Virus record (IMG/VR): IMGVR_UViG_3300009788_000014
Span: 1 to 60,611 of that record
Source: a virus
Taxonomy: Duplodnaviria; Caudoviricetes
DNA: 60,611 nucleotides
Direction: 5' to 3' (one strand)
Below the pieces are notes generated by a model, which saw only the letters and a list, made by a program, of their open reading frames with translations, searched no databases and was not told the DNA's origin. This document shows, one piece after another, positions 2,955 through 60,611 of the stretch. Position 1 is the stretch's first letter. Every line of letters starts with the position of its first letter. Both the position numbers and the translations under genes were made by a program.

Positions 2955-3392
2955 GCTTCGCGCTGGCCCTCCGGGTCCGCCCCGCGGCTCCCGGACCTTT
3001 GCCGGACAAACGCAGGCCGTCCGTGCCTGCGCCCGCGGTTCCCGCCGCCGGTCGTATCGGATCACACCGCCCGAGAGGGCGCCACGCGCCAGCCCGGCCG
3101 GGACGACCGCGGCCGGGCCGGCACTTCCAGGGGAGAATTCGATGCACGAAGAGACGCCCGAAGAAGCCCAGAGCGCCGTGGATGCATGGGTGGCCGAGAC
3201 CAAGAAATTCGCCGGCGCGATGGCGATCGGCAGGCCCGGTATGGCGAAGCTGTTGCACGCCGCGTCGGGCTGCCTGGTCGGCGGCGCCGCCGACGACGAG
3301 CTGGTCCAAGTAGCGGAACGGCTCGCGGCGTCGTGCTTGCGAAGGCTGGAGGTCTTGTCGGCCGCCCCCGCCCCGCTACGGGAGATTCTCAA

Positions 3393-5126: not shown

Positions 5127-5783
5127 ATGAAGAAGATTCCCTCCCTGTTCAGGCGCGACTACGACGGCGCCCGGCTGGTCTACGACGAGGTCGTCGAGGG
5201 CGGCGAGTGGGTCACCGCTGGCGAGGGCCGGGCAACGGTGAAGATCGACGGGACGTGCTGTCGGATCCACGAGGGCATCCTCTGGGCGCGGTACGATCGG
5301 AAGCGCCGCCGCGGCGCCACCGGCGAAGACGGCATCCTCGCCGCCTACAAGTCCGCCCCGCACGGCTGGGAACGTGCCCAGGAGTCTCCGGATCGCCAGA
5401 CGGGGCACTGGCCGGGCTGGGTTCCCGTCGGCGACGGGCCGGAGCACCGTTGGCACCGGGAGGGCCTGGAGTGGCTGCGGGATCGCGACAAGATCGCCAC
5501 AGAGGGAGCCTTCATCGCTCGCGGCACCTACGAGCTGGTGGGGCCGAAAGTTCAAGGCAACCCGTACCAGCTCGCAGGGCACGCCCTTTGGGGCCACGGC
5601 CAGAGCTTCGACCTCTGGCGATCCCCAGAGCCTCCGCGGGAGTTCGACCTGCTCAGGGCCTACCTCGTTCGCCATCTAGAGCACGAAGGGATCGTCTGGT
5701 GGCACCCGGACGGCCGGATGGTTAAGATCAAGCGACGGGACTTCGGTCTCGCGTGGCCACCGAAACCACCGGAGCCCGCGTGA
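5127..5783 (+). CDS. DUF5565 / RLIG1(C12orf29)-like ATP-dependent RNA ligase
   Basis: MKKIPSLF start, nucleotidyltransferase motif I TVKIDGTCC, TGHWPGWVP, GTYELVGPKVQGNP, EGIVW, KIKRRDFG. Confidence 0.8.
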   Translation: MKKIPSLFRRDYDGARLVYDEVVEGGEWVTAGEGRATVKIDGTCCRIHEGILWARYDRKRRRGATGEDGILAAYKSAPHGWERAQESPDRQTGHWPGWVPVGDGPEHRWHREGLEWLRDRDKIATEGAFIARGTYELVGPKVQGNPYQLAGHALWGHGQSFDLWRSPEPPREFDLLRAYLVRHLEHEGIVWWHPDGRMVKIKRRDFGLAWPPKPPEPA

Positions 5784-18164: not shown

Positions 18165-18704
18165 CACGAAACTTCCTTCCGTTCGCTTCGGAATCGAGTT
18201 TACGGAGCTGGAAGCCCGAAGCCTGCTCCTGCTACGCCCCAGGCGGTTCACCGACGAGCTTGGCGGCATAAACCCTCTCGTCTGTAAGAGCTTAGGCGTG
18301 AACAAGGCTGCGGCACGTCGCGCTGCGAAGAAGATCCGGGGGGTGATGAGGCTTGCAGAGGGGTACGGCAACGAGGAGGATACGCCATGAGCGACGAAAA
18401 GAAGACCGTGGTCGACCTCTCCGTGGACGCGCTCGTCTCCTTTTTATTCCTGTCCCTCTGCATTTTGTTTGCTGGCCTCTTTGTAGCCAGCGGCCTTAGC
18501 GAGATCGCCGACGCGATCAGCTCCTACACGATCCCGGCCGGTCCGTAGACCGGCCGGGGACTCGGTGTGAATGGGTGTCGTAGCTTCTTGCGACGGTCCT
18601 CCTTTCCTTTCGGTTGGTGTCACGGAGACGCTAGCCGCCGCCCGTCACGGCGTCGTCATCGTCATCGTCATCGTTCGGATCTGGCGGATCTCTGTGTTGG
18701 TCTT

Positions 18705-27571: not shown

Positions 27572-30500
27572 GCCGCGAACTGATCGAACGCGGTTTGCGC
27601 AGCCGCCTGGTGGGCGAGGGTAGCCGTCTGGAATTGCCGCTCCCGCACGTTGGCGCCGTCCTGCCCCAGCCGGATGAGCTCGAGGATCTGGTTCGTCTGT
27701 TGGAGGCTCAGGCCCCCGCCGCCCCCGCCGCCAGCGCCGCCCGCTGGGGCGAGCGGGGCGGAGGCCGGAGGCAAATCGGAAAGGTCAGAACCGCCGACCC
27801 CCGGGAGCCCTGCCGCACCAGGCGGCGGCAGCGGCGGCGGCACGATGCTTCCGAGAAGCTGCCTGATCTGGTCCTCTACGCTTCGCACCAAGGCCGAACG
27901 CTCGCCGCCGCCGATCAGGCGGTTGTAGTTGACGAGGAGCTCTCTGTACTCCATGGCGGCCCTGAGGGCTGCGTCGACGCTTGCTTGGTCCGTGGGATCT
28001 ACCGCCCGGGAAGCTTCCCGGAATGCCTCCCTGGCGCTTATGGCGGCCCCTCGCGGCGCCAGATCCGCGCGGGCCGTCCGGTCGAGCTCGTCGAGGAAAG
28101 ACGTCACGCCGGAGAACATCTCCTCCTGTATTTCCTGCCGGCGTCGCGCGAGCTCCGCTTCCGCCAGGGCCTGGGCCTGGAGGCGCTCCGCCGCGGTCCC
28201 GGCGGCCGAAGCGATCTCGTCGAAGAGCTCGGAGAACTGGAACTGCAGCGCCTCCAGGGGGCTCCGTGCGTTCGCTTCGAGCTCGCGGATGATGTCGGCG
28301 AGGGAGCGGCCGAGGGCTTCGGCCGGCGAAGAACCGCCGCCGGCCGCCGGTGGGTTGGATCCACGGAAGGATTCGCCGGCCCTGACCGTGCGGCGCACGA
28401 ACGGCCGGCGCCGGTCCACTTCTTCATCGTCGATCAGGATCCGTACTTCGATCGGCTCAGCCAAATCGTCGCGAATCCCGGCAATCAGCCTCCGCGTCTG
28501 GTCGTCGAGAGCGTTGGCGGCGATCAGCATCTGTTCCCACACCTTGAGCTGCAAAAGGGTGGCCTTACGCTCGAGCTCCTGTTTCTCCGCCTGTAGCTCC
28601 AGGACACGCTGCTCGTCTTCCTTGCTCCCTGTCCTGGCAAAGGCTGCCTGCGCCGACGAGATTGCCAGATCCACCAAGCCCGGCAGGATCCCGCCGCGGA
28701 CATTCGTTGCGACCTGCGCCGCGGTGAGGCCAAGCTCGTCGAGGTGGTCGGCGAGGAACTCGATCTGCCGGACCGCCTCCTTGCCGGCTTGCCGGATGGA
28801 CCGCATCCGGAATCCGAAGCTATCCAGGACGTCCCTGCCCAGCTCACGCAGGCTGGCGGCGAGCCCCCTCTCGATCGCCTCCCGTGCCTGCTCATACGCC
28901 TCGGGGTTGTCTGCCGCCAGGGCCAGGGCTTCGGAGAGCTGTACAGCAAAGCTCTCCCGGAGCGCCCGCATGGCGTTGGAGAGATCCGTCTGGCCGAGCT
29001 CGCGGAGGCCCTCTCTCGCATCGTCGCGGAGATTCCCCAGGTCCAGGGCGGCGAGATTTTCGATCGCCCGGTCGAGCTCTTCGATGCCGATACTCCCCGC
29101 TTCGGCGCGCTCGGTCAGCTGGCGGACCCGGTCGGCATGGGCGAGCTCGGCCGGGGCGAGGCCAGCGAGCGCAAGGGAAACCTCGTCGGCCGCGCGGCGG
29201 AAGTCCTCGGCCGCCCGCCGCCGGCCGCCACCGCCACCCCGTAGCGCGCGACCCCCTCCCGTGGGGGGCGGCGCGCCGGTGGGTGCCCCAAGGATTTCTT
29301 GCTCGTCGAGCAACAGCCGGATCCGGCTCTCCTCGGCCCGCGTCAGGAGCCCCAGGGCGGCGAATTGCTGGACGGTCAGGCGGAACTGGATCAACCGCAT
29401 CCGGTGCTCGAGCTCCAGGGCCTGCGCCGCGAGCTGGGCGTCGCCGGTGAATTCGGCGATCCGGGAGAAGAATCCGGAGCGCTGGCCGGCGCTGAAGGCC
29501 TCGGCCGCCTGTTCCAGCGTCGCGAGGTCGATCCCTTCGATCTCGCCGGCGACGATCTCAAGCGCCTCGCCGAAGGTGGCGCCACCAAGCTCCAGGTCGT
29601 CGAAACGCTCCCTGAGACGCTCGAACCGCTCGTCCGAGAGGCCAAGGGTCTCGGCCAGGTCGCCGAGGTCCATGGCGAAGCCGGTCGTCTCCTGGGACGC
29701 CACGGACGCCGCGGCCGCCGCATCGTCGTAGGCCGCCTGCAAGGCCTCTGTCTGGGCCGCTTGCTCCCGCGCGGCATCGAACTGCGCGAGCCCCGCGGCG
29801 GCTGTCTGGTCAATCCCGGCAAGCTGTAAGGCCTGCGACTCCGCCAGGCGGTTCAGGGCGTTCTCCTCCGCGATCCGGCCGTCAATGACGTCCTGCTGAG
29901 AGATTCCGAGCCGAGAGGTGATCTGGAGCTCCTCCCGGAGCAGGCGGACGCGGGCGGCGAGGAAGAGCTCGCCCTGGGACATCAGGCGCGCGTCGACGAG
30001 CTGGGCCACGGCGAGGTCAGCCGCGAGCTGCTCAAAGGTCGCTGCCAGCGTGTTCTTGAGCGCCGCGGCGACGTTCGAGGACAGGCCCTCGATGTCGGAC
30101 TGCTGGAGCAACCGCTTGATGGCCTCCCCGACGGCCTGGGCCTGGTCGGCAAACTCCGCGATGTCCTTGCCGCCCTGGATGAGCCGGAAGACCACCTTCT
30201 CGCCGTCCTGGCGGAGCTTGATCTCGATGTCGGCCAAGGACGTCACGGTCGCGCCGAGGCTCGTGATGATCGCGTTGAAGCCCTGCGAAACGGCTTGGCC
30301 GAACTGGGAAATCGCCGGCCCCAAAGAGCCCTCCACCTTCCGGGTGGTGCCGGAGATTACCCCGTTCAGGAGCTTGAACGTCTCGATCGCGTCGTCGCCG
30401 CCGCTCTGGAAGATGTTGAGCCCACCGACAAGCTCGCCGATGATCCCGCCGATGATCCCCGCGCCGGGGAGACCCGTCAACGCCCCGAGGCCGCCGAAGA

Positions 30501-38036: not shown

Positions 38037-38516
38037 CTAGGCCTGCGGCTTGGTCTCCGCGCCACCGTAAACCGCGACGACGGAATAGCCGAAGGTGTCT
38101 GTCGCCCCGGCACTCAGAGTCCCCGTCGTCTGGATCCGGATGAATCCGCGGTGTGCCCGAAGATCCTGGAAGCGGACCTTGACCACGCCGGTGAGGGTCT
38201 GGGCGCCGCTGGCCGTCTCCTGAACCGTCGTGGCGAGGGCTCTCGCGATCTGGAAATCCGCGACGCCGGCGCCTCCGACGCTCGTAGCGTCCTGGATGTT
38301 CAGCGCGACGCTGAAGGTCTCCGTGTCCGCGAGCGTAGTGGTGTAATTCAACAGAACGGTGAGCGATTGCGCTCGGTCCGGAGGAGCGTGAAACGCGCCG
38401 TCGTCTTCGACCGCGTCGCCGGCCCCACCGGCGAGCCCGGTAACGTCCTGGCTGGAGAAAACCCCCGTGAGGTACGCCCCGATGTCCTTCATTACTGTGC
38501 TGCTGTTCGCTGGCAT
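38037..38516 (-). CDS. Capsid decoration / cement protein
   Basis: Beta-sandwich pattern ending RGFIRI..T; directly after MCP. Confidence 0.6.
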   Translation of the reverse strand: MPANSSTVMKDIGAYLTGVFSSQDVTGLAGGAGDAVEDDGAFHAPPDRAQSLTVLLNYTTTLADTETFSVALNIQDATSVGGAGVADFQIARALATTVQETASGAQTLTGVVKVRFQDLRAHRGFIRIQTTGTLSAGATDTFGYSVVAVYGGAETKPQA

Positions 38517-38527
38517 GATCTCACCTC

Positions 38528-39802
38528 CTAGTAAGGAACGGCCGTCAACAGGTAGCCGGAGTTCCCTCGAGGCAGCAGGGTCCCGATCTTCTGACGTCCG
38601 CGCAGGACTTCGGTGTCTCGCTCAATCGTAGAAACGAGGCTACCGGCGTCGGTGTAGCTGGCATTCTGAAACCACTGGACGTCGAGCGCCGTCGACTGGC
38701 CGACCAGGAATTGCGACATCGCCTGGTGGATGAGAACGGTTTCGGTGCCGTTCAGGTTCGTTGGGACGTTTGTCGTCGACCCGAACGGAAAGCCCATGAA
38801 CGTGCCTGCTGTCATCTCGGTGAGGAAAAACGGCAGGTCGTTGGCGTCCCGGACGATGAACATCAAGTGGTTTTTTGTCCGCGGAGCCATGATCCAGGCG
38901 CGGCGTGAAATCGGCCGGATGTTCGAGTTCTCGACGCTGGTAAAGATGATCGCCACGTCGTCGAGGACGTTTGCCAGGGTTCCGGTCCCGGTCGCGGCGG
39001 AGGTCGCGGTGATCAGCGTCCGGAGACCGGCGATGATGTTGTTCAAGCCGGATCCGTTGATCAGCCGATCGTCGAACCCGGTGGCAAAGGCCATCCGCAT
39101 CATGTCTTGCAAGCGCGTGAAGATCGCGGGGCTTGCCGATTCCCGGTAATCCGCGGAGACGGGCATGATCGCCATGGCCTTCCGCATTGGCGTCTCGCGC
39201 TCGCCGTCCGCCGGGGTGGTGGTGAGGTCCAAGGTGTTGATCTCTTCGACCCAGGTGATGACGGGGTCGGTCTCCCACCCCGTCACCTTGAACTGGTCGC
39301 CGGTGACGGGGACCATCTCGGGCTGGAGACCGAGAACCACGCTCATCGCCCGAAGGGGTTCGAGCCAGAGCTCTAGGACGGTACCCTCCACCAAGAGACC
39401 GCCTTCGCCGGCGACGGCGAGATTGATCGTCTTGGCCCGGGACCCGGCGGCCTTCTTGAACCGCTCCGCGACGCGGTCGGCTGCGTCCTTGCCTCGCGAC
39501 AGAGACGTCCCTCCGCCCTCGCGGCCTTCCTTCGCCAGGGCCCAGAACAAGGCCCCCAGCACGGGGAACTGTCCGGTCGTGTCCTCGTAGGCCCGCTCGG
39601 CGGCGAGATTGGCCGCGGTTGTCTCAAACTGGGCCTGGAGGAGCTCGTCCCGGTTCTTGAGCTTCTCGTCGACCATTCCGGCGACGTGATCGCCGAGCTC
39701 CCGGTCGACATCCTTGGCGATCTTGTCCTTCTGTGCCTGGGTGAGCGGCAGGACAGGGGCGAGCCCCCCCGCTGGCGCCGCGGTGGCTACTTCGGTATTC
39801 AT
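38528..39802 (-). CDS. Major capsid protein (HK97 fold)
   Basis: EGGLLV, WVEE, DDRLINGSG, AWIMAPRT, GTFMGFP....NVP. Confidence 0.9.
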   Translation of the reverse strand: MNTEVATAAPAGGLAPVLPLTQAQKDKIAKDVDRELGDHVAGMVDEKLKNRDELLQAQFETTAANLAAERAYEDTTGQFPVLGALFWALAKEGREGGGTSLSRGKDAADRVAERFKKAAGSRAKTINLAVAGEGGLLVEGTVLELWLEPLRAMSVVLGLQPEMVPVTGDQFKVTGWETDPVITWVEEINTLDLTTTPADGERETPMRKAMAIMPVSADYRESASPAIFTRLQDMMRMAFATGFDDRLINGSGLNNIIAGLRTLITATSAATGTGTLANVLDDVAIIFTSVENSNIRPISRRAWIMAPRTKNHLMFIVRDANDLPFFLTEMTAGTFMGFPFGSTTNVPTNLNGTETVLIHQAMSQFLVGQSTALDVQWFQNASYTDAGSLVSTIERDTEVLRGRQKIGTLLPRGNSGYLLTAVPY

Positions 39803-43637: not shown

Positions 43638-44031
43638 CGTCGGTCTTTTTCGATCGCCTTCAAGATCTCGGCGGTGAGCTCCTCGGCCGAACTGCCGGCC
43701 GGCGTGGACACGTGGCAGGCCGCGGCTACCTCTCGGATCATCCGAAGCGGATCTGAGAACCCGGGCTGCGAGAGCGCTGAGAGTCGCTTCGGGCACCATG
43801 GAGCGCAGCCCCGAAACATAGTGCCGCACTCTGGAGCGTGGGGCGGGGTGCTATCCTTCGTCTGCGGCATGGCTTTGGCCCTCCTGGCTGTGCCGTGGGC
43901 GGTCCGGGCTGGTTCCCGGGCCGCCGTTTTTGATCAAACGGCGACGCCGGGCGTCCCTTCGCCCGCCACGAGCCGCCACTCGGACGCTCCTGGGGCAGGG
44001 TCATGCCTGCCACGCCGCCGCGTTCAGCCTA

Positions 44032-54370: not shown

Positions 54371-55711
54371 TCACCGGAGAATCGGCTCCGGCCGCTCCTC
54401 TCCTGCCCACTCCGGAGCGGGGTCTGATGACTCCGGCCCGAAAAGGTCCTTGTCGCATTCTACACAGAGGAAGTCCTGTACCTTGGCGCCTCCGAGCTTC
54501 TCGCCGCACAACCGGCACTTGCCTTCTGCCCACACCCGTTCGTGGCGCTCCGCCTCGGCCTCCGGGGGTTCTGCTCCGAGGGTGGGGAAGGCGGGGGGGG
54601 GCCGGCCCCCGTTGCCGCCTCCGGCGTCGTAGGCCGCGAGGTCGTCTTCCCAGGCCCGCTGGTTGACGAAGGGGGCGCCGCCCTTGGCGTAGCCGCTGGA
54701 CCAGCGGCGCGTCTTCTCGGCGCTTCGGATGAACTCTACGACCTCCTCGGGCGAGGGGCGGTCATCGTCGGGGATACGGCACCAGGCGGCGAGCGCTTCT
54801 TTTTTGCCGGTCCGCTTCGGGTAGTCGGTCCACCACACGTCGAACTCGGCCCGGCGCTCCGCCGGCGTCGACTTGGGAGATGCCCGCCCCGGATCGCTCG
54901 CGGCGGTGTCGCCTTTCTCCCCATGCTGCAGCGGGGACAGAGGATCCGGAGCGGGGCTTGGCTCTTCGCCGGGGGCACCGTACGGGTTGGCGGCGTCGTC
55001 CGGGTCTTCCAGCGGTAGGCCGGGGAAGTCGCAGCCCGGGCAAGGCTCATCGCCCTTGTGGTCCCGTGCGCAGCGGGCGGGGCCGGGCGCGCCCGCGCGC
55101 TCTTCTCCTTCTGGATCCTGATCTGGATCCAGGATCCCGGATCCGGACGCGCGCGCGAGGGACAATCGAGAACGCGTCCCCGACGCGTCGACGACGCGTT
55201 CGAGACGCGTTCCGAACGCGTTCGCCATGCGGTCGAAAACCGGGTCCCATCCGGGCGAGTAGCGAGCTCTGAAGTCCGCCCACAGAGCGGACTTGCGGCC
55301 CACGGAGGTGAAAGCGTCCATCATCTTGACCAGGCCCTTGACCTGGTTGCTCTCGGGGTTCGGGGTCTCGCCCCACTCATGCCGGGCGAGCTCCACGACC
55401 CAGAGCATCCGGTAGACGTCATCGACGAGTATGAAAGGCGTCCGTAACGCGTCGTCGACGCGTTCTCGACGCGTTCCGAACGCGTTCGAGACGCGTTCGC
55501 CCGACAGCCTGAAGAGCGCCGACCGGGCCGCTTCTCCGTCGATCCCGAGGTCGTCGCAGATCGTCGGCGTCGCGATCCGGTACAATCCGATCGCGTTGGA
55601 TGCGGGGCAGGTCATCAGATAGAACGCGACGGCGTGCGCCGTCGTGTCGCCCCGGAGGGCCTCGGCGAGATCGCCTTCCCAGTAGGCTTGGGAGACCTTG
55701 CGGTAGGTCAA
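54371..55711 (-). CDS. Phage replication initiator / replisome organiser
   Basis: N-terminal wHTH-like (YL.TCP..N.IGLY.I....I..DLG), DPDQDPE linker, FD.WW..YPKR.GK..A..AW domain; internal iterons. Confidence 0.8.
   Translation of the reverse strand: MTYRKVSQAYWEGDLAEALRGDTTAHAVAFYLMTCPASNAIGLYRIATPTICDDLGIDGEAARSALFRLSGERVSNAFGTRRERVDDALRTPFILVDDVYRMLWVVELARHEWGETPNPESNQVKGLVKMMDAFTSVGRKSALWADFRARYSPGWDPVFDRMANAFGTRLERVVDASGTRSRLSLARASGSGILDPDQDPEGEERAGAPGPARCARDHKGDEPCPGCDFPGLPLEDPDDAANPYGAPGEEPSPAPDPLSPLQHGEKGDTAASDPGRASPKSTPAERRAEFDVWWTDYPKRTGKKEALAAWCRIPDDDRPSPEEVVEFIRSAEKTRRWSSGYAKGGAPFVNQRAWEDDLAAYDAGGGNGGRPPPAFPTLGAEPPEAEAERHERVWAEGKCRLCGEKLGGAKVQDFLCVECDKDLFGPESSDPAPEWAGEERPEPILR
55172..55221. 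repeat. Iteron array 1: five ACGCGT at 11-bp period
   Basis: ACGCGT at 55172, 55183, 55194, 55205, 55216. Confidence 0.85.
55447..55496. repeat. Iteron array 2: five ACGCGT at 11-bp period
   Basis: ACGCGT at 55447, 55458, 55469, 55480, 55491. Confidence 0.85.
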
Positions 55712-55892
55712 AAGATTGCCCTCGGCCGGATGATGATCTCGTACTTGAGGCGACACCAGGCGCACCAGTCGGCAAAGTGAGGATCGCCGGAGGTGTCCGG
55801 CCAATGATGGGCGCAGTCGGGCTGGTCCGGGCGGTCCACTTGTCCGTCGCACACCTTGGGGACAGGCGCTTTCGGGTCGTCGACGCGGTCGC

Positions 55893-56075
55893 TCACTTGA
55901 AGTAGTCTCCCGGCCGCGGCGAGAGTGTCCCATCGGGCCTGACGGGCACGATGGCGACCCAGGGGAGCTTCCCGGAGGTGACGATCACGAACGGCCGTCG
56001 CTCCTCGTGGACGTCCTCCAGGACGGTCTTGAGGGTGTTGCGAAGGGCGGTGATGCCGATGCGGGTGGGTTCCAT
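55893..56075 (-). CDS. Phd/YefM-family antitoxin (DNA-binding domain only, orphan)
   Basis: IGITALRNTL..VL..V.....PFVIV..GK....IVP. Confidence 0.75.
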   Translation of the reverse strand: MEPTRIGITALRNTLKTVLEDVHEERRPFVIVTSGKLPWVAIVPVRPDGTLSPRPGDYFK

Positions 56076-56193: not shown

Positions 56194-58629
56194 TCAAAAC
56201 CCAACCTCCCAGCCGATAGCTCTGAATTCGTACTCAGTCGCCTCCTGGGCCGTGAAGGGCCAGTGGGGCGCGGGAGCGTCTTCCGCCTTGGCAAGGTCAC
56301 AGTCCCAGCACTCCCACGAGAGGACCCAGTGGTCACGACGGATCTTCTCCTCGTCCCGGCGGCCGGACGATCCGCCGGCGAGCGGGTGCATGGTCTTGCC
56401 GCACCCTGGGCAGGCCGGGACGTCGACGCGGCCGCTCACTCCGCATCCTCCTCGGTGGACGCCGAGGAGGCGACGAGGGCGTCGAACTCATCAGACGAGA
56501 CCGAGCAGGTCAACTCGACCTCCCCGTCCTCATCGTCTAGCGGTGTCCATGGACGAATCACGGCCACGCGGCCCGCCAGGTCGCTGTCCCGGCGAGCCTC
56601 CCTCAGGCAAGCGGCGTGAAAGGCGGTGGGTTTTCTATCGACGAGCCCGAGCACGCCGTGGCCGCCACGCAGAGCACGACTACACCACCAGCACGGCGCC
56701 TTGAGCCGAACGCCCCTCAGGGGCCGACGAGGGCGAAGCCCGCTCACTCGACCTCCTTGGGGCCGCGCACCACGGCCGAGCCGTCCTCTTCTGGAATCCA
56801 GACGGCCCTCTCATCGCCATGGAGCTGCCTGTAGTCCAGTGGGCGTCCGTGCGCCGGGATGAACCGGACAGCGACGCCGGGATTGGCCCTCTTGAGCGCC
56901 TCGAAGGCGTCCGAATCGATCTCGGGTTCTTTGTTCATCGCAGCAAGATCTCCATCATTCGGTCTCGTATCCGAGCCTGGTGGTCGAACTGACGCCCCCC
57001 GTAACGCTCCTCGATGCCGCGGGAGATGGCCCTGCACAAGCAGTGGGCGAAGGCCTCGCCGTCCGTCGCGAAGAGCCGGGCACAGCGGCCGGCCGCTTCT
57101 TCTACCTCGTCCGTGATGATGGCCGACATCTTCTGGTGTTCTAGGTCCACTTCGTCTCCGTGTTGTTCCCCTAGGACGGTCACCGCCCGGCCTCAGCTTC
57201 GTCGGGGTTGCGCGGAACGGCTGGGACCTTGTCGGGGTCTCCGAAATCGTCTGCCGGCCGCTCGGCCGCCTCCGGATCCTCCCACGGCACGATGCCGCCC
57301 TCGTGGCCCTGGGCGTAAATCTCGTGGCGGATCTCGCGCAGGGTGGCGCCTTCGGGGAGCCCTACGATCAGGCGAGCGACGCCTCCGTAGGCGCACTCAC
57401 TGCCTTCGTGACGGTCAGAGACGGGGCACGGTGTATGCCGTCCAAGCTCGCCCTCGTGTCGCGCCCGGGCTTCCGCCCAGACCGCGATACTGAGCGGGTC
57501 CTGCGTGTCGACACCGCCGTCCTTCGGCGGTGTCATGGCGCCCCGCCCCCGTCGCGCAGTGTCGGAGATTCCTCGGCGGGCGGCGCGGCTTCGGCCTCCG
57601 GGAAAAGACTGTGCAGACCGGTACTCCACCCATGTTCGTGGCCAGGTTTCCCTACTTCACAGATGAATCCCCACGGGCCAAGACCAATCCGGTAACCCTG
57701 GTCTTCGATGGCCAGGATTACCCCGGCTTCGCCACTGCACTTTCCGCACGAGCAGGTCCATCCGTCCACCGGCCGGCCGACGTAGCTTTCCCGGGCTTCT
57801 TCTATGCTCAAGATCATGGCTCTTCTCCTACAGCCTCCGCCGCCAGGCGCCGACCGTCTTGGCCTGCCGCTCGTCGGCGCTGGTCTTGATCCTGATCCGT
57901 TTGCCGCCAAGGGCGGCGATCTTCTGCATCTTGACTTGCCCCGGCTGCGCCAGCGCCAGGACCCAGGCGCGGCACGCCTCCCCGTAGCGGATCCACCGGG
58001 CGCCTTCGTCGCCGGCGCCGCGCCCGCGCTGGCGACGGATGGGATCCCGTCGCCCGATCCGCGTCACGAAGTCGGGGTCAGGGCCGAGGTCGCTGAAGGC
58101 ATCGAGGTGGTTCATGCCGATTCCTCCAACAGCGCCACACGCTGGGCTAGCTCGTGGATCGTTGCCAGCGCCCGCGCGAGGAGGCCGGCACGGTCGCCCG
58201 GGTGCATCGCGCCCAGATAGCGACCCCGATCCGTCATAACCAAGTCGACGGCCACTTCGTAGTCGTCGTCGTCGAGCGGCTCGGTTGACAGCGAGCAGCA
58301 ATCCGGCCACGTTCGGCCGGTCTCCGGCTTGCGCCACTCCTTCAGGTCCTCTCGGAGCTTCGGTCCAAACATTGTCTCGTCTCCGTGTTGGTGTCCGGTG
58401 TCCGTCCGCATCAGGCGCAGCTGCCGCTGATGACGACCTGGCACTGACCCGCTGCGGGGTTGATGCCCATCTCGCCGAGGAAAATCCACGCGGCATCGAG
58501 GGCGGTTTGGCCCCGGGGGACGATGAAAGAGGCCGCGTAGACCCGCTCCTCGCCGCCGGCCTTCCGGTCGTAGGCATCTACGGTCGCCCGGCCGTCCCGG
58601 GCGTGGTTCGTGGTGTTGGCGGTGGTCAT
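56194..58629 (-). other. Leftward operon of about nine small hypothetical genes, several with CxxC motifs
   Basis: Chain of GTGA/ATGA-coupled ORFs; first starts at 58629 and 58372 carry the CACCAAC..GGAGAC motif. Confidence 0.6.
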
Positions 58630-58725
58630 GGTCTGTCTCCGGTTGGTGTTTCTTGGTCTCGCCTCCTTCACATGCGAAGAGCGCGCCAGGTTGTGACCGG
58701 AACGACTCTTGCACGGTCTCCGGGC

Positions 58726-59019
58726 ATGGCACGACCGACCTATGACCCCGACGACGTCGCGCTTCTCCGCCTGAAGCGGAAATGTAGCGACCGCACAGCA
58801 AGACGCATCCTTGCCGCACAAGAGGCCGGTAGATCCGCTCCCCGTAAGGCTTTCGGCCCCGAGAGGCAGGTCTCCGACGAGGCGTTCCTGGCGGTTCTGC
58901 GGCGGTTTAGGAAAGCAGAAATCGGTCGCGGGCAGGCCGCCTCGATCCTCGGTCTTTCTTTGACTTCCTGGCACCGCTACCGCCGGCGCATCGAGCCTAT
59001 GCTACGACAAGACGCCTGA
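58726..59019 (+). CDS. HTH DNA-binding protein (resolvase-C-terminal-like HTH)
   Basis: EIGRGQAASILGLSLTSWHRYRR; at the main divergence point. Confidence 0.65.
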   Translation: MARPTYDPDDVALLRLKRKCSDRTARRILAAQEAGRSAPRKAFGPERQVSDEAFLAVLRRFRKAEIGRGQAASILGLSLTSWHRYRRRIEPMLRQDA

Positions 59020-59488
59020 AATGGGCAAGGCCACATAGAAGAGTGTCAAGATGTGTCCACTGCTCGGCAAAGCGTGTCACCCCTCGTAAATCGTTGAAAA
59101 CGCTTGGCTTGTGGTGATTATGCCGCGGTCCGTAAAGCCTGTAGCATGACATTCTGTGTCACGTCGCGTCCGCGACGGGCCTAGCAATGGTCCTCTAACC
59201 CCCGGAATCACTAGACCGCCCGTTCGGACACAACCTGGCACGCCGCTTGCTTATACAATCTCGGTGTCGACAGGGAAGGCAGACAAGGCGCCCTGAGACA
59301 CTCTTTGAAAACGGAAGACCCGGAACGGAGCCCTCGCCGGATAGCGGCCTTGCCAAGCCGCCCAACGTCCGAAGCCTTGAGGCTCTACCGCCAGGACCCC
59401 TTCCCGGAGCTACGGCCCGCGAGGAGGACAGCAGAGGGCAGGCGAGGGACGGATTCACCGTCTCATCGGTTCTCGCAAGGAGTCAACC

Positions 59489-59686
59489 ATGGCTTTTTCT
59501 CCCGGTACCGCCTCTGAGATCTCCATCCCGGCCGGCACGATCGTCTTCGACGAGGATTCCGACCGGGTGACCTTGTTGGCTCCCGTCTACGCCGCCGCGA
59601 TCCGCGAGACCGACGGTTCGTGGGCCTACGAGGTCGGCGGCCGGCGCTACTTTTGCGCCGGTGGTTGCGCGGAGGTCCCGGGCTGA
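59489..59686 (+). CDS. Small hypothetical protein (cassette A)
   Basis: AAGGAG RBS; fits exactly between paired arms. Confidence 0.7.
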   Translation: MAFSPGTASEISIPAGTIVFDEDSDRVTLLAPVYAAAIRETDGSWAYEVGGRRYFCAGGCAEVPG

Positions 59687-59885
59687 GGAACGGCCGAAAG
59701 GCCGCCCTTCGCCTGCCCCCTGCTGAAAGAGACCAGAGAGAGAGCGAGGGGCGACTGAGCCCGCGGGCAAGAGGTTCGCACCGGGCGAGTCGATGGACTC
59801 AGCCCCTCGCTTCCCCCCTGGTCAACACGAGAGCGAAACGGCAAGGGCGGCGGCAATCCAGCCTCGCCCGGTTGGAGAATCAGAC

Positions 59886-60026
59886 ATGAAGACCACCAAG
59901 CGCCCTGTCATCTTCAAGTGCCAAGAATGCGGACACGGGTTCCGGTCCGTCAAGGCCGCCGAGAAGGCGGCCTTCGGCGTAAACGGTTGCCCAGTCTGCG
60001 GCGGCGCCGACATCGGCGCCGCTTAG
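59886..60026 (+). CDS. Small zinc-ribbon protein (cassette B)
   Basis: FKCQECGH.F...CPVCGG; GGAG RBS; between paired arms. Confidence 0.7.
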   Translation: MKTTKRPVIFKCQECGHGFRSVKAAEKAAFGVNGCPVCGGADIGAA

Positions 60027-60155
60027 GCAACCGGACGCCCGCAAGGGCGCCCTTGCCGCTTCGCTCTCGAGACAGGGAGAGAGCGAGGGGCGCATACAGC
60101 GCCCCCCCAGCGCAACGCCTGCGCCGATCGCGCAGAGATGGGATTCTAGAGGACG

Positions 60156-60458
60156 ATGTCTACCGAGATTGCTACCTGCTTCTACGAGTCAACCCCGGGA
60201 GTCAGGCCGAAGCTTCCGGCCGGCCTGGAGTACGCCGAGTACGATGAACCGAAGAGCTGGACGTGGATCACCTGCTATGCAGGCTTCGGCACCGTGTCTC
60301 TACGCGTCAAGAATCGATCCGGGCCGCCCCTCGCTTCCCCCCTGGTCCCGACAGGAAATGAGCAAGGGGCGGATTCACCGCCCCGCAACCGCCTCCGCCG
60401 CCGCACCGTTAAACCGCCCCGCAAACCCGGAGAACACGATCATGAGACCTACCACTAA
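60156..60458 (+). CDS. Small hypothetical protein (cassette C; 3' part reads through the arms)
   Basis: GAGGA RBS; first 53 codons protein-like. Confidence 0.55.
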   Translation: MSTEIATCFYESTPGVRPKLPAGLEYAEYDEPKSWTWITCYAGFGTVSLRVKNRSGPPLASPLVPTGNEQGADSPPRNRLRRRTVKPPRKPGEHDHETYH

Positions 60459-60611
60459 ACGTCTCGAAAAAGCACTCGCCGCCCCCGCGATCTCAGACGC
60501 GATCCTCGCAGACGAGGACCTCTCGGGGCGCTACGACTGGAGCCGCGGCGACTCGCCCGAGAAGCGCGCTGCGTCGATCCGCAAGGCGCGCCTCGTTACG
60601 CCGGCGCTCAA
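60442..60611 (+). CDS. Small hypothetical protein spanning the circular junction (stop at 132-134)
   Basis: GGAG RBS; MRPTTKRLEKAL... stays open across the terminal repeat. Confidence 0.6.
   Translation, partial: MRPTTKRLEKALAAPAISDAILADEDLSGRYDWSRGDSPEKRAASIRKARLVTPAL
60506..60611. repeat. Terminal direct repeat, copy 2
   Basis: Identical to 1-106. Confidence 0.95.

Follow-up and report, generated by a model that had tools for sequence, protein, structure and literature searches.

A tandem array of four small units, each enclosed by a pair of complementary arms, lies near the end of a 60,611-nt viral record (Caudoviricetes; IMGVR_UViG_3300009788_000014), which was analyzed over its whole length and is referred to below as the window. 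The arms themselves, their unit-specific complementarity with compensatory changes, a thermodynamic preference for bracket pairing and the conservation of the design in a distant relative, phage G004, are all established. We tentatively read each pair of arms as a helix that closes a single cistron in the plus-strand early transcript, for processing, insulation or stabilization, and hold this reading with somewhat less than even confidence.

Layout of the array

The four adjoining units with left and right arms that were described in the initial annotation are all present, at 59429–60347. The spacing between successive units, read from the sequence, is 5, 4, 3 and 7 nt, in keeping with the 3–7 nt given there. 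Left arms (L) are 20–24 nt long and purine-rich, and the complementary right arms (R) are pyrimidine-rich. The features of the region and the arm pairs are as follows.

59094–59121, + strand: sigma-70-like promoter candidate, 9/12 hexamer matches with a 16-nt spacer, called from consensus match alone
59269–59292, + strand: L0, solo left-arm-like sequence that aligns with the left-arm family
59429–59452, + strand: L1, unit 1 left arm; 21 Watson-Crick pairs, 2 A.C and 1 G.U with R1
59446–59464, + strand: 7-bp hairpin of the MFE fold, overlapping the inner end of L1
59489–59686, + strand: cargo gene 1, 65 aa; GC3 0.83
59692–59703, + strand: 4-bp hairpin with GAAA loop, abutting R1
59702–59725, + strand: R1, unit 1 right arm, from inverted repeat, duplex energy and pairing probability
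59731–59753, + strand: L2, unit 2 left arm (empty unit); R2 (−36.1 kcal/mol) and R4 (−38.1 kcal/mol) are equal partners
59754–59801, + strand: non-coding insert of unit 2, predicted to form two small hairpins
59802–59823, + strand: R2, unit 2 right arm, inverted repeat with L2
59828–59849, + strand: L3, unit 3 left arm; 21 Watson-Crick pairs and 1 A.C with R3
59886–60026, + strand: cargo gene 3, 46-aa zinc-ribbon protein (Pfam matches below cut-off: DUF7560, E 9.9e-6; Zn_ribbon_8, E 2.5e-5); GC3 0.83
60036–60049, + strand: 5-bp hairpin with GCAA loop, abutting R3
60048–60069, + strand: R3, unit 3 right arm, from inverted repeat and pairing probability (0.88)
60073–60092, + strand: L4, unit 4 left arm, inverted repeat with R4
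60087–60105, + strand: 7-bp hairpin, overlapping the inner end of L4
60156–60458, + strand: cargo ORF 4, 100 aa; GC3 0.75 up to 60320 and 0.69 beyond
60325–60347, + strand: R4, unit 4 right arm, inside ORF 60156–60458; near copy of R2
60352–60384, + strand: L5, solo left arm (arm proper, 60352–60372; the fifth left arm) with its own 7-bp hairpin, upstream of gene 5
60442–60611, + strand: gene 5, 65 aa, unbracketed; crosses the terminal repeat to window position 133

59429–59452 / 59702–59725: unit 1 pair, 24 nt, 88% complementary, 249 nt apart
59731–59752 / 59802–59823: unit 2 pair, 22 nt, 82% complementary, 49 nt apart
59828–59849 / 60048–60069: unit 3 pair, 22 nt, 95% complementary, 198 nt apart
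60073–60092 / 60325–60344: unit 4 pair, 20 nt, 85% complementary, 232 nt apart

In units 1 and 3, and in the unit of G004, both arms lie outside the ORFs: the left arms stop 32–36 nt 5′ of the start codon, and the right arms start 15–21 nt 3′ of the stop. In unit 4, the ORF has no stop before R4, and its frame runs on through R4 and L5. The contig of the sequencing run carries an additional C after 60072 relative to the record; with it, the 5′ extension of L4 equals that of L2 and is therefore complementary to the outer end of R4. The hairpin at 59446–59464 rivals the inner part of the L1–R1 pairing, and hairpins homologous to it follow L4, L5 and the left arm of G004. Since the record is circular or terminally repeated (106-nt overlap), the array forms the head of a plus-strand gene block that continues at position 1. 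Cargo gene 1 had no match in Pfam, PHROG or the phage database, ORF 4 matched no family, and no Pfam family was found for ten further early ORFs. A tRNA scan returned none.

Pairing of the arms

Unit-specific complementarity, as proposed initially, is borne out in units 1 and 3, where the cognate duplexes are far stronger than any other (L1–R1, −46.7 kcal/mol, with other L1 partners at −33.9 or weaker; L3–R3, −45.2 kcal/mol, with other partners at −28.6 or weaker). It does not extend to units 2 and 4, whose right arms are near-identical: L2, L4, R2 and R4 cross-pair at −36 to −38 kcal/mol, L2 being interchangeable with L4 and R2 with R4. The null was drawn from the best partner within 1.3 kb of each of 150 random 25-mers (mean −28.2, sd 4.6, minimum −39.6 kcal/mol). 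Duplexes between each right arm and the neighboring left arm (−25.2, −13.5, −28.6 and −30.0 kcal/mol) fall within this null, the best partner of L0 (−33.4 kcal/mol) is inside its range, and that of L5 (−26.2 kcal/mol) is no better than it. Summed duplex energies are −165.2 kcal/mol for the four cognate pairs versus −97.3 kcal/mol for the four neighbor R(n)–L(n+1) pairs.

Pairing probabilities, taken as the probability mass per arm nucleotide, were predicted in a 1734-nt transcript and amounted to 0.67 for L1–R1 and 0.88 for L3–R3, with the interchangeable arms giving a nested alternative (L2–R4, 0.81; R2–L4, 0.62). The initial annotation had named dominant local hairpins between a right arm and the next left arm as one outcome that would speak against brackets; every such neighboring hairpin has a predicted probability of 0.00, and the bracket is preferred. 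When each unit was folded alone, the MFE structure was closed by its own arms. The z-scores of the sense folds were −4.27, −5.03, −7.94 and −1.96 for units 1 to 4, respectively; the whole of unit 2 folds at −55.2 kcal/mol, with 0 of 200 shuffles as good, and unit 4 folds weakly (6/200 shuffles as good).

The window contains three inverted repeats with arms ≥21 nt, a match of ≥85% and gaps of 30–700 nt, units 1 and 3 being two of them; 20 dinucleotide shuffles gave a mean of 0.2 (maximum 1). Background sets contained 9 inverted repeats with arms ≥21 nt in 1.65 Mb from 159 loci and 26, many of them redundant, in 1.34 Mb from 153 loci; most are not gene brackets. The bracket pattern exceeds chance. 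Other long-range inverted repeats, at 3232/3419, 3527/3646 and 58681/59223, were set aside as lying in ORFs or within the chance rate.

Compensatory changes and the question of strand

The compensatory evolution claimed for the arms is evident when the stems are anchored on their conserved inner core: 16 of the 29 columns differ on both sides between units yet stay Watson-Crick paired. Identity between the left arms of different unit types ranges from 7/22 to 15/22 (18/19 between units 2 and 4), and the Watson-Crick share of positions within units is 82–95%. Each stem comprises 20–24 positions with 17–21 Watson-Crick pairs, and the continuous helix of ~20 bp or more expected of an RNase III stem is present.

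The mismatches are, as first described, transitions at all 11 of 11 non-Watson-Crick positions in the four stems (8 A.C and 3 G.U), and every stem holds at least one A.C. On the sense strand of five stems, including that of G004, there are 11 A.C, 3 G.U and 1 other, counts that are partly dependent on account of the right arm common to units 2 and 4. The antisense duplex is more stable by 3.4–7.3 kcal/mol in every stem, and the antisense z-scores (−4.47, −5.37, −8.35 and −1.81 for units 1 to 4; −6.24 for G004, versus −4.61 in sense) are equal or better in 4/5 units. The signature of selection on a sense-strand RNA, in which G.U is tolerated, A.C is avoided and the sense strand folds better, was not found in these stems. 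The folding signal is that of an inverted repeat and not that of a strand-specific RNA. Because the mismatches favor the antisense strand and the z-scores are strand-neutral, RNA as the folded species is unsupported. Thermodynamics and the G004 bracket support the proposed joining of both cistron ends by long stems; the mismatches and z-scores weigh against it.

A homologous bracket in a second phage

G004, whose terminase is 41% identical, carries one homologous bracket with 29-nt arms and 25 Watson-Crick pairs. It encloses the first early gene, of 121 aa and the first past a divergent regulatory region, which is unrelated to the cargo genes of the array. A 17-mer of the hairpin on the R1 side recurs 5′ of the G004 right arm, and it was an IMG/VR scan with this 17-mer that recovered the phage. 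G004 and the array agree in both inner hairpins, the one 3′ of the left arm and the tetraloop hairpin 5′ of the right arm. This one relative holds a different gene between homologous arms. An inner module common to phages with 41% terminase identity shows that the design has been kept up and did not arise by chance in a single genome. G002, the closest relative examined (terminase 58%), has no analogue of the array. A further genome, G001, was considered as an arm-bearing relative and judged a chance match.

A proposed closing helix for each cistron

Each unit runs from a purine-rich 5′ arm through a small hairpin, a Shine-Dalgarno sequence with a short ORF and a small hairpin with a tetraloop to a pyrimidine-rich 3′ arm. 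In the mechanism that we propose, the 5′ arm of the plus-strand early RNA would pair with its own 3′ arm once the latter has been transcribed, closing the cistron with a helix of 20–24 bp, i.e., two turns, the size needed by an RNase III-type endonuclease. Cleavage within the helices would split the polycistronic early RNA into single-gene messages, and the inner hairpins would cap the new ends, thereby insulating each message from its neighbors and protecting it against exonucleases. Unit 2, which is empty, would serve simply as a hairpin for processing. We infer here that folding takes place in RNA and in its sense strand, that a particular nuclease acts on it and that expression is affected.

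A scan of 58600–60611 found one promoter-like site, upstream of the array, against 0.1 expected, and none at the unit junctions; T-run terminators between units are likewise absent. The promoter-like site, the same-strand ORFs and the lack of T-run terminators would suit a single transcript that contains both arms. Several observations count against the closing-helix reading. R4 lies inside ORF 4, so that cleavage at this arm would yield a message lacking its stop codon; L0 and L5 are without partners; there is no G002 analogue; and no RNase III is encoded by the phage, neither this gene nor a reverse transcriptase gene being found in the window.

RNase III processing is known from sites in the T7 early transcript and from the stems enclosing the 16S and 23S segments of bacterial rRNA operons, although the T7 sites are local hairpins and not brackets. 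Like these systems, the array is predicted to place helices some two turns long around individual units of a single long transcript or between them, and it would leave hairpins at the new ends; like the rRNA operons, it builds each helix from the flanks on both sides of a unit. Unlike both, its units are small protein-coding cistrons, four in tandem, and its mismatches do not favor the sense strand.

A speculative extension concerns RNA ligation. The initial annotation was correct in assigning the protein encoded at 5127–5783 to the RLIG1-like ligases (PF17720, E 3e-14). A double-strand-specific cut through a bracket would leave the 5′-phosphate and 3′-hydroxyl of one cistron adjacent on the remaining helix stub, and this ligase could conceivably seal them into a circular message. 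The outcome would be exonuclease-proof, translatable circular early RNAs, or else rejoined flanks; we regard this as pure speculation with a very slim chance of being right.

Should the arms act at the RNA level, they would constitute a portable holder that gives any small early gene processing, insulation and end protection, and this would help explain how shuffled, fast-evolving ORFan early genes are expressed. The principle of 5′–3′ closing stems, familiar from the operons of rRNA and a handful of individual messages, would be extended to protein-coding arrays, and the designers of synthetic operons would gain an insulator ready for use.

Alternative explanations

The arms may instead function in DNA, as holders of exchangeable cassettes. 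The arm modules would be short homology patches or insertion sites for swapping small ORFan genes, which general recombination machinery would gain, lose and exchange, as proposed for the PeSL cassettes of T4-type phages; the complementarity of left and right arms would be a relic of insertion into a hairpin or be kept by arm conversion. We consider this account doubtful, though well worth weighing, and it is compatible with the RNA reading. If this is correct, the brackets would point to a new way in which phages exchange single genes. Each PeSL unites a promoter and a local stem-loop terminator in a direct repeat; as in the array, these modules recur between genes, on either side of small early ORFans within a plastic region, and such repeats can drive the gain or loss of single genes (PMC2839356). 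Unlike PeSLs, the junctions of the array lack a promoter consensus, local hairpins are disfavored and the constraint lies in left–right complementarity; neither a sigma-70 promoter nor a local stem-loop terminator, the two traits of every PeSL repeat, was found in the array units.

The state of the array itself lends weight to cassette exchange. R2 and R4 have a 21-nt identical stretch in common and are also similar upstream of it, which suggests recent copying, and the stop of ORF 4 is lost exactly at R4. One unit is empty, two left arms stand alone, and the cargo, all of it ORFan, is unrelated in every unit and in G004. The strand-neutral folding signal and the sense-strand excess of A.C mismatches fit as well. 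Homology patches, however, predict conserved left arms, whereas the left arms diverge (down to 7/22) and keep complementarity to their own right arm; moreover, the window has 3 filled brackets and 1 empty one, and G004 has 1 filled and none empty. No joints or alternative forms are seen in the run's contig, the data being contigs only. The arm family is also clustered in the array and not dispersed: four of the seven arm-core matches in the window at ≤1 mismatch are in the array (the others are at 43834, 45731 and 54749), and when 3 mismatches are allowed, matches fall below chance expectation. The dispersed copies expected of a MITE-like element with terminal inverted repeats were not found. 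IMG/VR scans with arm-derived motifs gave chance matches only, in coding sequence or common hairpins.

A very improbable reading, suggested by the bottom-strand mismatch bias, is integron-like cassette exchange on folded single-stranded DNA by a host enzyme. Integrons hold tandem short promoterless genes separated by imperfect palindromic sites of variable sequence in which pairing is kept. The array resembles them in its sequence-variable paired sites between tandem genes and in the better folding of the bottom strand; it differs in that no integrase (PF00589) is present and in that the partners flank a gene, whereas integron partners are local within a site.

A rather improbable alternative is that closure of the 5′ and 3′ UTRs serves as a switch of translation or message lifetime, for which RNase III processing is not obligatory. 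The closed form would be stable and poorly translated; once the 3′ arm is trimmed or opened, the left arm would refold locally and the message would become active. Two messages serve as models. In hok mRNA, the tac/fbi fold-back is a long-distance pairing of 5′ and 3′ UTRs that closes a short message, and the 5′ element has an alternative local partner, as the inner ends of the left arms have a mutually exclusive one, in a four-segment layout like tac/fbi/ucb (PMC9841398). In icaR of Staphylococcus aureus, a C-rich 3′-UTR motif pairs with the purine-rich 5′-UTR of the same message and forms an RNase III substrate (PMC3868564). The initial statement that no such layout was known is too strong as regards the principle, 5′–3′ closing stems being described in both messages; no report of protein-coding cistrons bracketed one after another in an array turned up in our literature search. 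The icaR pairing is short and lies over the Shine-Dalgarno sequence, whereas that of the array spans 20–24 bp, is placed 5′ of the ribosome site and recurs around gene after gene.

When the right arm is removed, the ribosome site is predicted to become more accessible in units 1 (0.28 to 0.47) and 4 (0.18 to 0.43), as a switch would require, but accessibility is unchanged in unit 3 (0.51 to 0.46) and in the G004 unit (0.28 to 0.32). Sequestration is thus inconsistent, with accessibility rising in 2/4 units, and the Shine-Dalgarno sites, ~25–30 nt inside the left arm, are left uncovered by the arms. Unlike the stand-alone hok locus, the array units sit within an operon, and their translations are not hydrophobic, in contrast to small hydrophobic toxins. 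The sense-strand mismatch asymmetry counts against a switch as it does against the closing-helix reading.

Inversion of DNA, in which a site-specific recombinase flips segments of 200–270 bp in a shufflon-like manner and so toggles early genes, is very unlikely. The geometry would suit it, with arms of 20–24 bp around 49–249 bp and one arm family in all units, and invertons of such dimensions have been described in bacteria. However, neither a serine (PF00239) nor a tyrosine (PF00589) recombinase is present anywhere in the 60.6-kb record, while the PF00589 search matched in 14/14 control genomes. Among the sequencing runs carrying the phage, one is listed, of DNA, available as contigs and probably the source of the present sequence, and none is of RNA; its single contig, at depth 35, has no strand-changing joints or rearrangements, which is weak evidence since contigs drop rare variants. 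A common recombinase also predicts a conserved core, whereas the outer two thirds of the arms vary freely between units. DNA exchange or inversion, offered earlier as the alternative to RNA processing, thus finds neither a recombinase in the record nor joints in the one contig-level run.

Ordinary local intergenic hairpins, i.e., terminators or attenuators formed by a right arm and the next left arm, are barely credible: the two arms are 3–7 nt apart and belong to complementary families, but their duplexes (−13.5 to −30.0 kcal/mol) are within the null, their pairing probability is 0.00, no T-runs follow them, and a right arm has its own left arm available before the next one is transcribed.

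Relatives and database searches

Nothing in the phage collection matched the array DNA, and a search of the array and the G004 non-coding region against Rfam gave no family at E ≤0.1, the best hit (0.2) being far below the gathering score. The capsid protein found no match in viral contigs, and a 276-aa early protein found none in metagenome contigs; G002–G005 are without the early protein and the replication protein. Terminase relatives in metagenome contigs reached 32% identity or less among the matches listed, a single match in genome contigs reached 27%, and GenBank phages reached 28% or less. Closer terminase homologues, whose longest contigs measure 34–102 kb, are known as proteins (P0002–P0015), with identities of 42–64%.

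Organization of the bracketed units

The array comprises four tandem units, each opened by a purine-rich left arm (L1 to L4) and closed by a pyrimidine-rich right arm (R1 to R4), and the observation is solid and unusual. All four arm pairs proposed in the initial annotation are present:

Arm pairs and solo modules of the array (all + strand)
Unit 1: L1 59429-59452 and R1 59702-59725; 24 nt, 88% complementary, 249 nt apart, around gene 59489-59686
Unit 2: L2 59731-59753 and R2 59802-59823; 22 nt, 82% complementary, 49 nt apart, both inner hairpins present, no gene
Unit 3: L3 59828-59849 and R3 60048-60069; 22 nt, 95% complementary, 198 nt apart, around gene 59886-60026
Unit 4: L4 60073-60092 and R4 60325-60347; 20 nt, 85% complementary, 232 nt apart, R4 lying inside ORF 4 (60156-60458)
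L0 59269-59292 and L5 60352-60384: left modules without a partner

The inter-unit gaps are 5, 4, 3 and 7 nt. Third-position GC in the enclosed ORFs (0.83, 0.83 and 0.75) is near that of the terminase (0.87), which marks them as real. Inverted repeats of such quality are uncommon: 3 occur in the window versus 0.2 in shuffles, and 9 in 1.65 Mb of loci from terminase relatives. As the initial annotation had it, every mismatch is a transition (11 of 11 non-Watson-Crick positions in the four stems), a pattern partly expected once one arm is purine-rich and the other pyrimidine-rich. The contig of the sequencing run departs from the record in two places, a T>C change at 58439 and an extra C after 60072; the latter makes the outer end of L4 equal to that of L2, and the L4-R4 match thereby grows to 23 positions.

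In every left arm, the innermost 7-8 nt have two possible partners, the right arm and a copy lying a few nucleotides downstream; the right arm begins inside a small tetraloop hairpin, in its 3' half. Folding predicts an outer helix of ~16 bp that leads to a junction carrying a hairpin at either end of the cistron; a fully extended helix of 20-29 bp is the predicted alternative. In units 1 and 3, as in a homologous bracket of the distant relative G004, the arms lie 32-36 nt ahead of the start codon and 15-21 nt past the stop. ORF 4 has no stop before R4, running through R4 and L5 and into the beginning of gene 5. From 60311 on, the sequence is a copy of the region preceding R2, which suggests that recombination removed the original end of this gene; the copy event that created R4 probably took away the stop of ORF 4.

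Compensation between arms

Across unit types, left arms share just 7 to 15 of 22 positions; despite this divergence, each is 82-95% Watson-Crick paired with its own right arm. When stems were anchored on the conserved inner core, 16 of 29 columns were compensatory, i.e., the pairs differed on both sides, the columns being positional rather than proven homologous. R2 and R4 are recent copies, identical over 21 bases and with an upstream extension in common, so that unit 4 is not independent evidence.

Preference for the cognate partner held for units 1 and 3, while the arms of units 2 and 4 proved interchangeable (RNAduplex). L1-R1 reaches -46.7 kcal/mol, with any other partner of either arm at -33.9 or weaker, and L3-R3 reaches -45.2 kcal/mol, with alternatives at -28.6 or weaker; L2, L4, R2 and R4 cross-pair equally (-36 to -38 kcal/mol). 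Compared with the best partners within 1.3 kb of 150 random 25-mers (mean -28.2, sd 4.6, minimum -39.6), units 1 and 3 lie far beyond the chance range, units 2 and 4 about 2 sd from its mean. Duplexes between a right arm and the next left arm (-25.2, -13.5, -28.6 and -30.0 kcal/mol) fall within this null, and their sum is less favourable than that of the cognate pairs by 68 kcal/mol. A partition-function calculation on a 1734-nt transcript from the putative start gives pairing probabilities of 0.67 for L1-R1 and 0.88 for L3-R3. The neighbour hairpins, whose dominance would have contradicted the long stems, have a probability of 0.00; local terminators at the junctions were rejected on the duplex energies and the absence of T-runs. 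The interchangeable arms are predicted to nest at equilibrium (L2-R4 0.81, R2-L4 0.62), although the order of transcription would favour L2-R2 and L4-R4.

A homologous bracket in a distant relative

G004 is a phage of 82 kb whose terminase is 41% identical. The first gene past its divergent regulatory region (38390-38755, - strand, 121 aa) lies between 29-nt arms that form 25 Watson-Crick pairs (unit fold z -4.61). Its left arm terminates in the core and small hairpin common to L1, L4 and L5, and a 17-nt tetraloop hairpin precedes its right arm, as before R1. This bracket is independent support for the compensated design. It also bears out the expectation that homologous arms would hold different genes in relatives, its gene being unrelated; no relatedness was found among the cargo genes, to the other genome's proteins or to known families. 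The terminase relatives G002 (58% identity), G003 and G005 show no analogue.

A near-identical ribosome-site context, in which a run ending in GAGGAGACGACC stands ahead of the ATG, is found before two genes of the window (at 363-382 and 595-614) and before the gene following the G004 bracket (at L303 ~18279-18300, - strand), so early-region expression signals are common to both phages despite unrelated proteins. Elsewhere in G004, an ORF-poor stretch of ~1.6 kb (L303:8400-10100, i.e., G004 28400-30100) contains several long-range inverted repeats and matches no Rfam family; within it, 28590-28875 (286 nt) folds better on the - strand (z -5.40) than on the + strand (z -2.56). This stretch is possibly a large structured non-coding RNA. 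On an unrelated 253-kb viral contig (L049:1622-1987), perfect 23-nt inverted arms surround an 83-codon ORF on the - strand in intergenic surroundings; single gene brackets may occur in other phages.

Possible functions

We tentatively favour, at somewhat less than even chance, a role in RNA. Each cistron of the early transcript would be closed by its own arm helix, of the length needed by RNase III-type enzymes; a cut in the helix would yield single-gene messages with the inner hairpins as caps, and would insulate neighbouring cistrons. Such a role would account for arms that vary freely while still pairing, the conserved inner hairpins, the placement of arms just outside ORFs, the tight packing, the empty unit and the indifference to cargo. 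The sequence features, their thermodynamics and their conservation are shown; that RNA is the acting species, and likewise the strand, enzyme and effect, we infer. Several results speak against a role in RNA. Sense-strand mismatches in the five stems (units 1-4 and G004) are 11 A.C versus 3 G.U, with A in the left arm every time, and the antisense duplex is the more stable in all five. Antisense fold z-scores are equal or better in four of the five units, which makes the signal one of a DNA inverted repeat, with no strand-specific support. R4 also counts against this role, as it sits inside ORF 4 ahead of any stop. Among sequencing runs searched, only one, of DNA, contains the phage. As a check for a hok-like translational switch, in silico removal of the right arm raised predicted ribosome-site accessibility in units 1 (0.28 to 0.47) and 4 (0.18 to 0.43) but left it much the same in unit 3 (0.51 to 0.46) and the G004 unit (0.28 to 0.32).

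A DNA-level cassette-holder role for the arms, which may exist alongside one in RNA, is rather unlikely. The R2/R4 copy event, the empty unit 2, the solo modules and the ORFan cargo speak for it, but a cassette holder alone predicts that left arms are conserved among themselves rather than complementary to right arms. Inversion, also raised initially, and integron-like exchange are disfavoured, as the record has no match to a serine or tyrosine recombinase or a reverse transcriptase and the sequencing run's contig contains no rearrangement joints.

Closing stems between the flanks of a unit are known from rRNA operons and T7 early RNA. The same principle is described for the hok tac/fbi stem (PMC9841398) and icaR (PMC3868564). 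The initial view that no described system has this layout is thus too strong as regards the principle; our literature search uncovered no description of protein-coding cistrons bracketed in a tandem array. PeSLs are likewise repeat-flanked ORFan cassettes of phages, but their modules consist of a promoter and a local terminator (PMC2839356).

Genome setting

The first 106 nt of the 60,611-nt record recur as its last 106 nt, so the genome is circular or terminally redundant. Terminase identity to the nearest cultured phages is at most 28%. The - strand from ~19 to 58.8 kb encodes a portal, an HK97-type capsid protein, the large terminase, a 1774-aa tape measure, two DNA methyltransferases and a DnaD-like/replication initiator protein. 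A + strand ORFan block begins at the array, crosses position 1 and ends at ~18 kb, which places the array at the head of the early block. Inside this block lies an RLIG1-family RNA ligase (5127-5783; PF17720, E 3e-14, 53.1 bits vs a cut-off of 25); RLIG1-type ligases usually repair cleaved tRNA.

The single promoter-like site in 58600-60611 lies at 59094-59121, ~300 nt upstream of the array. Around it are multiple copies of a GTGTC-containing motif (59043-59275) and an inverted pair (59043-59058 / 59226-59241), possible candidate operators for a small HTH-like ORF (58726-59019) with weak Pfam matches. Within the DnaD-like/replication initiator gene (54371-55933, - strand), dense ACGCGT-rich direct and inverted repeats (55166-55496) form two clusters ~250 nt apart and look like an origin with iterons.
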